The notes under the pieces are model-generated. The model did not search any database. It worked only from the letters and a program-made list of their open reading frames with translations, and was not told the DNA's origin. 22,001 nt of DNA from a virus (taxonomy: Duplodnaviria > Heunggongvirae > Uroviricota > Caudoviricetes), in the IMG/VR virus record IMGVR_UViG_3300045988_109008; one strand, written 5' to 3'. Below, piece after piece: positions 1,003 through 22,001 of the stretch (within the stretch, counting starts at the first letter, position 1; every line of letters starts with the position of its first letter). The translations under genes were made by a program, and so were the position numbers.

Positions 1003-2016
1003 TTACTCTACTGTGGACACTGTGTGGACACTCTCAACCTCAGTACCACCTCTTAGCGGATTAAGAGAAATGGCGTCCTGAAGGTACTCTGGCGCAAAAT
1101 GAGCGTAAACCATAGTTTGCTCAATCCGTGTGTGACCTAGTATCCGTTGTAGCGTGATAATACTTCCTCCATTAATCATGAAATGAGTGGCAAAGCTGTG
1201 CCTTAGTGCATGTGTGGCTTGCCCCATTGGCAAATCCGGTTTTATTGCTTTCATTGTTCGTCTGAAGCGAGGGTAATCAGCATCAGGGAATAAAAAACCT
1301 CGTTTGTTATCCGCGATTATTTTGGCAACAGCCTCTGAGATCGGGACGGTGCGTGGTTTGTTTGTTTTCGTTTTAACAAACGTGACGCGGTTATGGATGA
1401 TATTTTCTGCTTTCAAACGAGCTGCTTCTCCCCAACGTGCTCCAGTACTCAGGCAAAGAATCGCAATCTTTTTGTTGTCGCCGTCAAGAGCAGCAAGCAG
1501 TAAGGCAATTTCTTCCTGCGTGAGATAGCCTGTGTCTGGTTTTTCCTCCTTAAGCCTTTTTGTCCCTCTGATAGGGTGCTCACCAAAGAATAACTCCGCT
1601 TCAATCAGGGCTGTAAACATGCCGCTAATACATGTTAAATCACGATTGATACTCGAAGGTTTAATACCCTGACTTCTTCGGGTGGCGCAGTACTGGCTGA
1701 TAAGCGATTTCGTAATTTGAAATGCGCATGGGTCATTCGTTATTTTTGTGAAGATTTCAATTTTTCCAAGATTAGATCTCCCATGCTCTTCGTGTTTACC
1801 CTTTAAATCCCACCAGATCTGTGTCAGCTCCGACAGACGTCGCTTGTCTGTTGGTTTTGATAGCCATTCTTTATTGTGGTGGTTGTACAACGTGTATTTC
1901 TCGAAAGCGACAGCTTCGCTTTTCTTATCAAACTTCCTACGGATGCGTTTTCCATTACGTCCAGTAGGGCGGATGTCCACTTCATATCGACCATCATCGA
2001 GTTTTTTGATTGCCAT
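1003..2016 (-). CDS. int: Tyrosine integrase, P2 Int-like (337 aa)
   Basis: Full-length ORF; N-terminus MAIKKLDDGRYEVDIRPTGRNGKR and C-terminal catalytic region HALRHSFATHF...GHTRIEQTMVYAHF (R-H-R-Y type) match P2 integrase as I recall it. Adjacent to the att core. Confidence 0.93.
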   Translation of the reverse strand: MAIKKLDDGRYEVDIRPTGRNGKRIRRKFDKKSEAVAFEKYTLYNHHNKEWLSKPTDKRRLSELTQIWWDLKGKHEEHGRSNLGKIEIFTKITNDPCAFQITKSLISQYCATRRSQGIKPSSINRDLTCISGMFTALIEAELFFGEHPIRGTKRLKEEKPDTGYLTQEEIALLLAALDGDNKKIAILCLSTGARWGEAARLKAENIIHNRVTFVKTKTNKPRTVPISEAVAKIIADNKRGFLFPDADYPRFRRTMKAIKPDLPMGQATHALRHSFATHFMINGGSIITLQRILGHTRIEQTMVYAHFAPEYLQDAISLNPLRGGTEVESVHTVSTVE

Positions 2017-7216: not shown

Positions 7217-7247
7217 AAGGGGGCGGGGCCCCCTTTATAGGTTTTTT
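7217..7247. terminator. GC-rich hairpin (aaggggg-cgggg-ccccctt) followed by a T-run on the plus strand, between convergent genes
   Basis: 7-bp G/C stem at 7217-7223 and 7229-7235, then tataggtttttt. It lies immediately 3' of the minus-strand 976-aa ORF, so it may terminate transcription from either side. Confidence 0.5.
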
Positions 7248-10177
7248 CAGGAATGAATAACCTTTCTAACCTGGAAGCTATCATTATGAGATGGGATTAT
7301 TTCTCCTTTGAAAATAAGCCCTTCTCTCAAATACTGCCTGCTTTCAGAGGAAAATATTGTTACGTGGAAAAATATATCTACAGGGAGTTTGTCACAACTA
7401 CAGAATCCATATCCTCGTTGTGGAAAGTATCTTTTAATGATGCACTCCCCACTGATTGCTTCAACGTTTGGTGATTCTTTGCTATAAATATGACTAATCA
7501 CCATGCCTATCTCTGTTCTGGAAATGTCACACATCAAAGTGTCGCCATCAACGACGGAATCTATATTATATTGTTTTAATAAATTTTGAGAAATATCGAT
7601 GGGCCCATCAATGTCATTAACAATTAGATATCCAAGGCCACGCTCAACATCATAGCTATCTACAATTGCCCTAGCATGTTTTTTTACGATGCCTAGTTTA
7701 TAAATGTCGCCAAGAGTATTCTCTGGTGGTTCGCTTTCATCATATCTATTTTGTTTAAAGACTAATAGTCGATTGATTAACTCTTTTTGGCATTCATATT
7801 TTTCATGTGTTATCTCATTGCTAATATAAACAGAGTCTTCAGATATTAAATACTCTAGAAATAGATTTCTAATATTGTACATTTTAGAGATGTGATTGCC
7901 TTTGGAAGCATAAGTATCTTTTATTTTATTTGCGATAGAACTGTCGGTGATCGCTGTTGTTAATGCCATTTGATAGAAGTAAACGCTATTACGAGATGCG
8001 AGCTTTAAATGTGCTCTACCTTTATAAGAAATTGCTAATTTCTGATTTGATGAGAGTGTAGTTGATGACATATCATAGGGTTCTATTAATTTTGCCATAA
8101 TTAAGCTCTCTAAAGCTTTATCGACAGCTAGTTCTGTTGCTCCTAAAGCATCGAAATAACTGCTGATAGATTGTACGCTTAAATGTTTATCCTCAATGCT
8201 TTTTCCAGGCACTTGAATGGAGTTAAGTAAAGTAAGGATTCTTAACGCTTGCAATGGTGATTGTCTTACTTGACTATCAACTTGGAATATAGGATATATT
8301 TCTGGGATGTCACCATTTTTATAAACTTCATAATCACCGCGAATTAACGCGTCCATGAAGCGAGTGAAATTTATCGAAGGAAGTTCACCACTAATATAAG
8401 ATTTTATCAAATCCTCTATTTTAATTGCAGGGGATGTGATTATTCTTTTTGATAATAATAATGTGCTGCGTATATTATAGTTGGCAAGCTCACCAAGAGT
8501 TTGTGATGTGTAATCATGATTCACAAAAATATTTTCAATCACTTTAGAAAATTTATTTATATCTTCAATGGAAATTTTAATACCTTTTGATAAAAGATAG
8601 CTTTTCTTTTGTTCATTAGTATCTTTATTGTTAAGTTGTGATGTGATGAAGTTAATTCGCTTTCTGAATACTTCCCGTGGGGACGGAGTTGGTAGAAAAA
8701 ATGATTTCGATTGATAGATGCTAAATATATCTGTCTTGGAGAAAATCCAAGCTGATTTATCTGTTACGGGGAAAATAACAAGGCAGTGTTTAATGTTTTT
8801 TTTAATTGAATTGCTAAACTGGAAGACTTTTGTTTTAAAGTCAAGTGTGAATTCATCAGTGTTATCTACGACTATTATTGGAAGCATTTTTCTATTGCTT
8901 ACAACATTGTGAAGGATGCGTTTTAAATATCCCTCTCGATCATTTTCAACAGCTTCATCTAAATAACGTCCAAATTTTTCCTTGAACTCATCTTTACTTC
9001 TATTGTAAAGAGCTGCGTCCGCTCCTCTTGATTTTCTTTTATATTCATTGTGATAAAGTCCAAGGAGATCATTCCATTCAGGTACGCCGTCCTTGTAAAG
9101 CTGGGTCTCAAGGGTTTTTATTATTTCTTCAGTCATCCAATCTAGAACTGTATCTTCTCGCCCTGTAGCTTCTAAGCAGTTTATTTTAATAAGTAAGCAT
9201 CGTTCTCTAATCGTTTTATTAAGGGTACGACTGAAAAAACGGTCTAAAAAAGTCGACTTCCCAGAGCCAGTTGGTCCAACTATAAAAACGGATTGTTCTG
9301 ACTCTAGATTTATATCAGACTCAATATTTGACATTATTAAATCAGAAAGCTCATCTCCAACTTTATTTTTATTATGGTTTATATTTGACAAGACGCTAGT
9401 TGTTATTTTCTCAAGTGAATAGTCTGCAATTCTACTTTCATATGATTCAACAAAACATTCCATCATCATCTCGTCATCTCCCTCTAATCGAGAGAAGAAA
9501 CTAGAGAATACCCTTTCTAAATCATAAGCCATATCACTTTTTCTTGTTATTTTTATATCAGATCCAATGATTGGGGCTGTTAATTCATTATTTAACAATA
9601 AACGTTTGTTGTGAATATCATCAAATATAGTGTTATACAATCTCTTGTTAAATGCTTCTTTTGATAATAATTCATAGAACACGCTAAATGATTTTTCGAC
9701 TGCCTCGATACTAGGGAATACAATTGCCTCTTTACTCTTGAAGTTTTCACCAGGTATAAATGTTTTGAATATTACCCAACATAACCCATCAGTTAGAATA
9801 GAAAGAGGTATGCCATTTGGCGATGCGTAGCTAAATGCCTGGTTAATTCCTGTCTCGCATTTCTTTAAAGCAGAACCTGATATTTTTAAATGTCTTACAG
9901 TGTTTTTTTGAGCTGTTTCAACTTCTAAAATGCCGATTTTTTTGGCTTCGACAACAAAGGAGGGATGATCATCAGTGGAAAGAATGTAGTCAGAGAATCC
10001 ATTGTCATGAGCAGTTTCACAAGCAATATCAGAGTGCATCCATCCAAGCGTCTCTGTTAATATGCGAGTTATGATTTGAATTTTAGCATCTTCTTCTGAT
10101 TGGATTTTTGTGATGTTATGATTAACATCACTCATAATTTTTAAGAATTTTTTTTCGCTGGAATCTAAACTAGTCAT
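7247..10177 (-). CDS. Large multidomain protein (976 aa): PD-(D/E)xK nuclease fold, P-loop NTPase and C-terminal cold-shock domain; candidate anti-phage defence protein in the P2 tin/old hotspot
   Basis: N-terminal GFSDYILSTDDHPSFVVEAKK (aa 60-80, nt 9938-10000) resembles the HsdR N-terminal nuclease motif. Walker A VGPTGSGKST is at nt 9251-9280, and a Walker B-like IIVVDNTDE is at aa 434-442. The C-terminus RGYGFCSCD...DIFFHVTIF has RNP1/RNP2-like cold-shock motifs (nt about 7250-7450). The gene is AT-rich against a GC-rich phage backbone and sits between A and cos. Confidence 0.8.
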   Translation of the reverse strand: MTSLDSSEKKFLKIMSDVNHNITKIQSEEDAKIQIITRILTETLGWMHSDIACETAHDNGFSDYILSTDDHPSFVVEAKKIGILEVETAQKNTVRHLKISGSALKKCETGINQAFSYASPNGIPLSILTDGLCWVIFKTFIPGENFKSKEAIVFPSIEAVEKSFSVFYELLSKEAFNKRLYNTIFDDIHNKRLLLNNELTAPIIGSDIKITRKSDMAYDLERVFSSFFSRLEGDDEMMMECFVESYESRIADYSLEKITTSVLSNINHNKNKVGDELSDLIMSNIESDINLESEQSVFIVGPTGSGKSTFLDRFFSRTLNKTIRERCLLIKINCLEATGREDTVLDWMTEEIIKTLETQLYKDGVPEWNDLLGLYHNEYKRKSRGADAALYNRSKDEFKEKFGRYLDEAVENDREGYLKRILHNVVSNRKMLPIIVVDNTDEFTLDFKTKVFQFSNSIKKNIKHCLVIFPVTDKSAWIFSKTDIFSIYQSKSFFLPTPSPREVFRKRINFITSQLNNKDTNEQKKSYLLSKGIKISIEDINKFSKVIENIFVNHDYTSQTLGELANYNIRSTLLLSKRIITSPAIKIEDLIKSYISGELPSINFTRFMDALIRGDYEVYKNGDIPEIYPIFQVDSQVRQSPLQALRILTLLNSIQVPGKSIEDKHLSVQSISSYFDALGATELAVDKALESLIMAKLIEPYDMSSTTLSSNQKLAISYKGRAHLKLASRNSVYFYQMALTTAITDSSIANKIKDTYASKGNHISKMYNIRNLFLEYLISEDSVYISNEITHEKYECQKELINRLLVFKQNRYDESEPPENTLGDIYKLGIVKKHARAIVDSYDVERGLGYLIVNDIDGPIDISQNLLKQYNIDSVVDGDTLMCDISRTEIGMVISHIYSKESPNVEAISGECIIKRYFPQRGYGFCSCDKLPVDIFFHVTIFSSESRQYLREGLIFKGEIIPSHNDSFQVRKVIHS

Positions 10178-20832: not shown

Positions 20833-21741
20833 ATGCCGATTATCGACCTGAACCAGCTACCCGCACCGGATGTGGTCGAGGAGCTGGACTTTGAAACCAT
20901 TCTTGCCGAACGCAAGGCGACACTGATTTCCCTTTACCCGGAAGACCAGCAGGAGGCGGTCGCCCGTACCCTGACACTGGAATCTGAGCCTCTCGTCAAA
21001 CTGCTGGAGGAAAATGCTTATCGTGAGCTTATCTGGCGTCAGCGTGTGAATGAGGCTGCACGGGCGGTGATGCTGGCCTGTGCAGCCGATAATGACCTTG
21101 ATGTGATTGGTGCCAATTACAACACCACACGCCTGATTATCACCCCGGCAGATGATTCAACCATCCCGCCGACACCGGCAGTAATGGAATCTGACACCGA
21201 TTATCGGCTGCGTATTCAGCAGGCGTTTGAGGGCTTAAGCGTCGCCGGGTCGGTGGGAGCCTATCAGTATCATGGTCGCAGTGCCGACGGGCGTGTCGCC
21301 GATATTTCTGTCACCAGTCCGTCTCCGGCCTGCGTCACCATCTCTGTGCTGTCACGTGAAAATAACGGTGTCGCATCCGAAGACCTGCTGGCCGTGGTGC
21401 GTAACGCCCTTAATGGCGAGGACGTCAGACCGGTGGCCGACCGCGTGACCGTGCAGTCTGCCGCCATTGTTGAATACCAGATAAACGCCACGCTTTACCT
21501 TTACCCTGGTCCCGAAAGCGAACCCATCCGCGCGGCCGCCGTGAAAAAACTGGAAGCATACATCACGGCACAGCACCGGCTGGGGCGCGACATCCGTCTG
21601 TCTGCCATTTATGCCGCCTTGCATGTTGAAGGTGTGCAGCGTGTCGAACTGGCTGCACCGCTGGCCGACATCGTGCTCAACAATACGCAGGCGTCTTTCT
21701 GTACCGAATACCGCGTCGTGACCGGAGGCTCGGATGAGTGA
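20833..21741 (+). CDS. J: Baseplate protein J (302 aa)
   Basis: Size and position match P2 gpJ. Confidence 0.88.
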   Translation: MPIIDLNQLPAPDVVEELDFETILAERKATLISLYPEDQQEAVARTLTLESEPLVKLLEENAYRELIWRQRVNEAARAVMLACAADNDLDVIGANYNTTRLIITPADDSTIPPTPAVMESDTDYRLRIQQAFEGLSVAGSVGAYQYHGRSADGRVADISVTSPSPACVTISVLSRENNGVASEDLLAVVRNALNGEDVRPVADRVTVQSAAIVEYQINATLYLYPGPESEPIRAAAVKKLEAYITAQHRLGRDIRLSAIYAALHVEGVQRVELAAPLADIVLNNTQASFCTEYRVVTGGSDE

Positions 21742-21961
21742 TTCGCTCCTGCTGCCAACCGGCTCATCGCCGCTTGAAGTCGCCGCCGCAAAAGCCTGTG
21801 CGGAAATTGAAAAAACGCCGGTCAGTATTCGTGAGCTGTGGAACCCGGACACCTGTCCGGCAAATCTGCTGCCGTGGCTGGCGTGGGCGTTTTCGGTCGA
21901 CAGATGGGATGAAAAGTGGCCGGAAGCGACCAAACGCGCCGTTATCTGCGTATTACCGTGA
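21734..21961 (+). pseudogene. I: Baseplate protein I, truncated after 75 codons (P2 gpI is about 176 aa)
   Basis: N-terminus MSDSLLLPTGSSPLEVAAAKACAEIEK matches gpI through ...KRAVI. The ORF then reads CVLP-stop at 21959-21961, and the other two forward frames also stop by 21978. Confidence 0.6.
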
Positions 21962-22001
21962 AGGAGATCGGTGAGTAACATCGATGGAGATCGGTTCGTG
22001 T

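Follow-up and report, generated by a model that had tools for sequence, protein, structure and literature searches.

An ISEc12 terminus within tail gene I of a P2-like prophage, at an insertion point shared with fourteen other contigs

The window, by which we mean the whole stretch of 22,001 nucleotides analysed here, carries a P2-like prophage whose tail gene I stops early. With a probability of about 85%, we attribute that stop to transposition of the insertion sequence ISEc12 into an otherwise intact prophage. Positions 21947-22001 are exactly the first 55 bases of this element (55/55), and the insertion within gene I that a preliminary description of the DNA had proposed is borne out, the bases after the breakpoint being an IS21-family terminus. 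ISEc12 is a 2,581-bp element that encodes an IstA DDE transposase and an IstB AAA+ helper. Its genes would lie past the end of the window and on the minus strand, pointing against gene I. The window itself covers only the terminal 2% of the element, and istA and istB lie beyond it. ISEc12 in a prophage gene is an ordinary event of an already known kind, and a truncated gene explained by a routine IS insertion has little importance in itself. The features around the junction are as follows.

20833-21741, plus strand: gene J, baseplate wedge protein, 302 aa, intact (Pfam Baseplate_J, E = 2e-23)
21734-21946, plus strand: 5' part of gene I, comprising codons 1-71 (intact relatives have 176-203) and ending …KRAVI
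21942-21946, no strand assigned: presumed left target-site duplication TTATC, of 5 bp on the assumption that this copy follows the majority of ISEc12 copies; 6 or 7 bp (GTTATC, CGTTATC) would also be possible
21947-22001, minus strand: outermost 55 bp of ISEc12, istB-proximal end, 55/55 identical to the PGAP-annotated copies in L001 and L002
21947-21969, plus strand: terminal repeat R1, TGCGTATTACCGTGAAGGAGATC, which holds AAGGAG and the gene I-frame stop TGA at 21959-21961
21970-21992, plus strand: terminal repeat R2, GGTGAGTAACATCGATGGAGATC, which holds TGA at 21972, TAA at 21976 and ATG at 21984

As in P2, gene I directly follows J with an 8-nt overlap, and J is collinear both with P2 J and with its counterpart in the prophage of E. 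coli strain E1 (L005). The gene I frame runs from ATG at 21734 to TGA at 21959-21961, specifying a 75-aa product that ends …KRAVICVLP, of which the last four codons are IS-derived; the remaining forward frames close at TGA 21972-21974 and TAA 21976-21978. A script reproduced all of these coordinates, as well as the earlier observation that the frame tracks P2 to KRAVI and then diverges. The fragment is recognised by Pfam model Tail_P2_I (PF09684; E = 7e-26, 91.3 bits, cut-off 20.6), although only over profile positions 1-65 of 139, and by NCBIfam model TIGR01634 (E = 2e-30, 105.2 bits, cut-off 30.05). Against P2 gene I, 8 of 213 nucleotides differ in an ungapped alignment, and codons 1-71 are identical to those of P2 gpI at 70 of 71 residues. 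Unlike P2 gpI, the window copy is cut at residue 71 of 176-203 and is without the C-terminal region that tethers gpH. At 75 codons, the ORF thus falls short of a full-length gpI, which has 176-203 aa and includes the C-terminal fibre-anchoring region.

BLAST alignments with P2 and its relatives (96-99% identity) extend to 21950. In the ungapped alignment with P2 (NC_001895), mismatch begins at 21947 and no similarity is seen past 21950; the three matches at 21948-21950 (GCG) are due to chance, and the true breakpoint is therefore 21946|21947. The insertion point is between nucleotides 213 and 214 of gene I, where intact relatives have the empty site …GTTATC|CGCGATGCC…. Alignment to P2 gene I had been suggested in the preliminary description as one way to follow up the early stop; similarity does end abruptly, at 21947, and the inserted element could be named as ISEc12.

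When 5,426 complete E. coli genomes were searched by BLAST with a 57-base query covering 21947-22001, matches came from 1,831 of them and numbered 5,472. Most of these matches are at 100% identity, they occur on chromosomes as well as plasmids, and the number of copies per genome has a median of 3 and a maximum of 14. Two annotated matches are the outer end of an 'IS21-like element ISEc12 family', adjoining istB. The copies that we read are 2,579-2,581 bp long, begin TGCGTATT…, finish …AATACGCA and are flanked by short target duplications. The termini are of the TG…CA type, with TG at 21947-21948 and the CA end, which falls outside the window, seen in the reference copies (…AATACGCA). By the ISfinder convention, elements with >95% nucleotide identity are the same IS; when compared with the PGAP-annotated copy in L002, identity is 55/55 for the window, 119/119 for contig L004 and 1,054/1,054 for contig L007. 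In the L002 copy, IstA matches NCBIfam transpos_IS21 (NF033546) with an E-value of 1e-92 and IstB matches Pfam IstB_IS21 (PF01695) with an E-value of 2e-67. The closest known counterparts are the annotated ISEc12 copies of E. coli, for example the one that splits tssM in EC958, of ST131 clade C (PMC10711316). Annotated ISEc12 is identical over the 55 bp visible in the window and the 119 bp of L004, has the TG terminus and two terminal repeats phased by 23 bp, and likewise disrupts a gene of a contractile-tail-like machine by simple insertion. The target here is instead P2 gene I, and whereas the tssM insertion is a single ancestral event that has been clonally inherited, the gene I site appears to have been hit repeatedly and in both orientations.

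The direct repeat noted earlier, GGAGATCGGT, was recovered at 21963-21972 and 21986-21995, a spacing of exactly 23 bp. It occurs nowhere else in the 22 kb, the chance expectation being 0.02 matches, and two copies arose in 0 of 100 shuffles. IS21-family ends carry direct repeats, L1/L2 and R1/R2, with a spacing of about 23 bp, and IstA binds every one of them (PMC10122671). The observed spacing equals this published value; the pair represents the IstA-binding terminal repeats of an IS21-family end, two phased units that correspond to R1 and R2. ISEc12 in this respect resembles IS21 and IS5376 (PMC10122671, PMC11208146), which have R1/R2 repeats about 23 bp apart, terminal CA/TG, both IstA and IstB, and target duplications of about 5 bp. 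At the istA-proximal end of ISEc12 (L002 4003-6583), four (G)AGATC repeats lie in a 23-nt register at positions 18, 41, 64 and 87, as compared with two at the istB-proximal end. A 209-aa minus-strand ORF (21352-21981) takes its ATG from within the IS end (MLLTDLLHGNT…) and runs outward, antisense through I and J. This ORF is almost certainly spurious, and it shows an outward-facing start codon at the istB-proximal end of ISEc12.

The junction is found well beyond the window. Other contigs that encode the 75-aa truncated product were traced by exact look-up, and ISEc12 is found at the identical gene I nucleotide (21946|21947) in 15 sequences, namely the window and 14 other contigs (L004, L006-L015 and L075-L077). 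L004, a MEGAHIT k119 metagenome contig (ERZ27234621), shows no difference from the window for 10,213 bp, after which it continues through 119 of 119 ISEc12 bases. L007 and L008, in which the element has the opposite orientation, extend 1,054/1,054 and 1,167/1,168 bases into the istA side and read into an rve-domain ORF. Short-read contigs break off k or k-1 bases into the multicopy ISEc12, as can be seen from how many IS bases each contig retains.

Logan contigs (k = 31): 29-30 IS bases
MEGAHIT contig (k = 119): 119 IS bases
SPAdes-style scaffold L009: 55 IS bases
Window: 55 IS bases

Among recorded contigs that encode precisely this 75-aa product, the longest has 22,016 nt and exceeds the window by 15 nt. 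The 55 IS bases of the window therefore probably mark the end of the source contig, or a point within 15 nt of it, and a break at this place is expected because ISEc12 is multicopy. The same break explains why the window sequence cannot be extended, so that the 2-3 kb extension proposed in the preliminary description is not possible within that record.

These contigs, together with the alignments, bear on two explanations that dispense with transposition. One holds that the early stop is a point error, a frameshift or a natural short allele of gene I, and that AAGGAG with GTG or ATG opens a new gene downstream. The coordinates from which the preliminary description drew its strong ribosome-binding site were confirmed by script (AAGGAG 21961-21966, GTG 21971, ATG 21984), and it speaks for this explanation that AAGGAG lies 4 nt ahead of GTG and 17 nt ahead of ATG. 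The gene start itself does not survive, however. Followed into the complete ISEc12, the ORFs opened by GTG and ATG reach only 17 and 30 codons, and they run antisense to istB; no gene begins at these signals, all of which, along with the three stops, fall within R1/R2. Gene I similarity breaks off at 21947 and the next 55 nt are 100% ISEc12. A sequencing error as the source of the stop is further contradicted by the identical junction in contigs built by different assemblers. As for a naturally short gene I, the gene is full-length in related prophages and phages (P2 gpI has 176 aa, that of the closest prophage 203), and some 1,500 complete E. coli genomes match through the site without an IS. 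Refuted by the P2 and ISEc12 alignments, contig L004 and the ORF lengths, this explanation has next to no chance of being correct. The other explanation, to which we give hardly more credence, is that the junction is an assembly artefact, in which an IS end was chimerically joined to gene I during repeat-rich short-read assembly. It is true that the window stops inside a multicopy repeat, where assemblers misbehave. Nevertheless, the identical junction occurs in at least 14 other contigs from different sequencing runs, three kinds of assembler (Logan unitig-based, MEGAHIT and SPAdes-style) agree on it, and flank SNPs linked to it are no more than one k-mer away.

A third alternative accepts the insertion and concerns what follows it. 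If ISEc12 simply transposed into gene I, the DNA downstream of the window would consist of the rest of the element, a 5-7 bp target duplication and then the 3' part of gene I. The far junction would read …CATGAAAATACGCA, then TTATC, GTTATC or CGTTATC, then CGCGATGCC…; for the other orientation, it would read …CGGTAATACGCA followed by the same three possible duplications and CGCGATGCC…. Target-site duplications in the IS21 family range from 4 to 8 bp. In a survey of IMG/VR loci L016-L054 plus L001, L002, L078 and L079, ISEc12 duplications were 5 bp in seven IMG/VR loci and in L078 and L079, 6 bp in three and 7 bp in five. This 5-7 bp range differs from IS21 and IS5376, the latter having a 5-bp duplication (PMC10122671), as does the EC958 tssM copy of ISEc12 (PMC10711316). 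Among full-length copies in the IMG/VR loci, 3 of 18 (L018, L038 and L051) have no duplication. For the gene I site, neither a far junction nor a target duplication was found in any collection searched. Exact-pattern scans of GTDB species representatives, JGI metagenomes and IMG/VR did not return the junction, and BLAST of 5,426 complete RefSeq E. coli genomes returned it in neither orientation. When the C-terminal part of gpI, tagged with MKIRI, was used as a homology query, no IS-gpI fusion ORF at this site emerged, although ISEc12 did come up elsewhere in gene I (P0157, P0051 and P0025). Ten predicted fusion products, chosen to represent three alleles, either orientation and duplications of 5, 7 and 8 bp, were likewise absent on exact look-up. 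Some 113/114-aa C-terminal gpI ORFs (P0155, P0049 and P0151) were considered as far-junction products and rejected, being frameshifts and deletions unrelated to the hotspot. Contigs L065-L068 start at ATCCGCGAT…, TATCC… or TTATCC…, starts that fit a 5-bp duplication and a break at the -4 SNP alike.

The IS might accordingly be the boundary of a rearrangement such as a deletion or inversion, in which the remainder of gene I and the tail genes beyond it were lost or relocated, either after insertion or by recombination with another ISEc12 copy, so that gene I does not resume. The three full-length IMG/VR copies without matching flanks, the multiplicity of ISEc12 (median 3, maximum 14 per genome), which supplies substrates for recombination, and the absence of the far junction from the collections searched all speak for it. 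On the other hand, the remaining 15 of the 18 IMG/VR copies, as well as those in L001, L002, L078 and L079, have duplications of 5-7 bp and are thus simple insertions, and the 21 kb of prophage ahead of the insertion shows no damage, pointing to a recent single event. We regard a rearrangement as unlikely, albeit distinctly less so than an artefact, and retain simple transposition of ISEc12 into gene I as the preferred reading.

The consequences of that transposition for the phage can be predicted from the structure of the baseplate. The P2 wedge is composed of two gpJ and one gpI, and the C-terminus of gpI holds the gpH fibre (bioRxiv 10.64898/2026.09.14.750843). A gpI cut at residue 71 could neither build the wedge nor anchor the tail fibre, and a polar effect would likely disturb transcription of the downstream genes H and G. 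Unless complemented, the prophage would yield no infectious particles. Since the truncated gpI is without its fibre-anchoring part, the prophage should be tail-defective, and this probable loss of gpI function, as judged from sequence, means that it is to be scored as probably tail-defective even though every other gene in the window is intact.

More consequential than the insertion in the window, and the only part worth following up, is its recurrence. Among the 15 junction sequences, ISEc12 lies one way in 10 and the other way in 5, and the two orientations imply at least two insertion events. The 1,100 nt preceding the junction fall into 11 distinct flank haplotypes; over the flanking 1,300 nt these diverge from each other by 2-4%, and the polymorphisms nearest the junction are at -1, -4, -7, -16 and -19 nt. 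The 90%-identity cluster of the truncated product contains seven distinct 75-aa variants, of which four end …VICVLP, from the istB-proximal end as in the window, and three …VICVFS, from the other end of ISEc12. One ancestral insertion spread by recombination was rejected in view of the flank SNPs at -1 to -19 nt listed above and the presence of both orientations. We therefore think it likely that position 213|214 of P2-type gene I is a base-precise hotspot for ISEc12, one that has been used independently at least five times, and probably at least 11 times, in both orientations. IS21 and IstB are described as having no strong sequence specificity and as choosing targets by structure (PMC11208146). 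Against the little target specificity reported for IS21 and IS5376, ISEc12 shows a nucleotide-precise recurrent site. If the hotspot is real, IstA/IstB, described as lacking target sequence specificity, would recognise a local sequence or DNA-shape feature there, and work on IstB/IstA site choice would gain a target that is preferred in nature. Insertion at the site would also be a way in which P2-like prophages are repeatedly inactivated in E. coli, and a marker of such inactivation. No report that ties ISEc12 to P2 prophages was found in the searchable literature.

The neighbourhood of the hotspot has the following sequence.

Around 21946|21947: flanking CGCG motifs, a TTATC core and, downstream, TGCCTATTTCAT

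No general ISEc12 target consensus is apparent in 39 flanks; the flank-similar sites H118 and H119 were given no weight, as they had been selected by BLAST for that very similarity. A pseudo-end 5 nt downstream, TGC(C/G)TATTTCAT, which resembles the IS terminus, was considered as an attractant for IstA and is treated as unsupported. With the common GCC allele, the region ranks no higher than the 84th percentile among prophage windows, whereas with the GCG allele it comes within about the top 1%; end-like words at the other ISEc12 sites examined show no enrichment over controls. Codon 72 of gene I, directly 3' of the insertion point, varies in intact alleles among CGC (Arg), Cys and His, as seen in relatives P0002, P0005, P0026 and P0031. 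The Cys allele, which would be TGC, would read ATC TGCGAT and so mimic TGCG, the start of the IS terminus. ISEc12 is also present at three or more further positions of gene I in relatives P0157, P0051 and P0025, where the evidence is IS-derived extensions (MKIRN-KGTIG…, MISFHENTQ-PLGY… and …PASA-AYFHERRSLNNFHRDRVITFEQIAE).

The window as a whole is a P2-like prophage, collinear at 98.3% with the intact prophage of strain E1 (L005), in which gpI has 203 aa. No phage ORF between int and J, these two included, is damaged, which suggests that the insertion is recent. The left end is laid out as follows.

Left part of 1-2016: host DNA, the end of yegS and then yegR (361-738)
1003-2016, minus strand: phage integrase, following host yegR

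By comparison with strain E1, the prophage sits at the yegR / trhP(yegQ)-ogrK locus. A 976-aa P-loop NTPase (7247-10177, minus strand) stands alone between replication gene A and portal gene Q, a gap that in P2 is the old/tin cargo position. It matches AAA_22 weakly (residues 293-463), gives weak PADLOC hits to mad8 and mad3, aligns along its whole length with PHROG 14719 ('unknown function') and has no sequence relative in PDB. It is put forward as a candidate defence gene, unclassified by the libraries searched. Lastly, relatives P0027, P0069 and P0079 are fusion proteins in which the N-terminus of the gpO scaffold, holin or LysA is followed by C-terminal gpI sequence that starts at about codons 83-97. 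They reflect deletions within P2-like prophages, with one endpoint in gene I.
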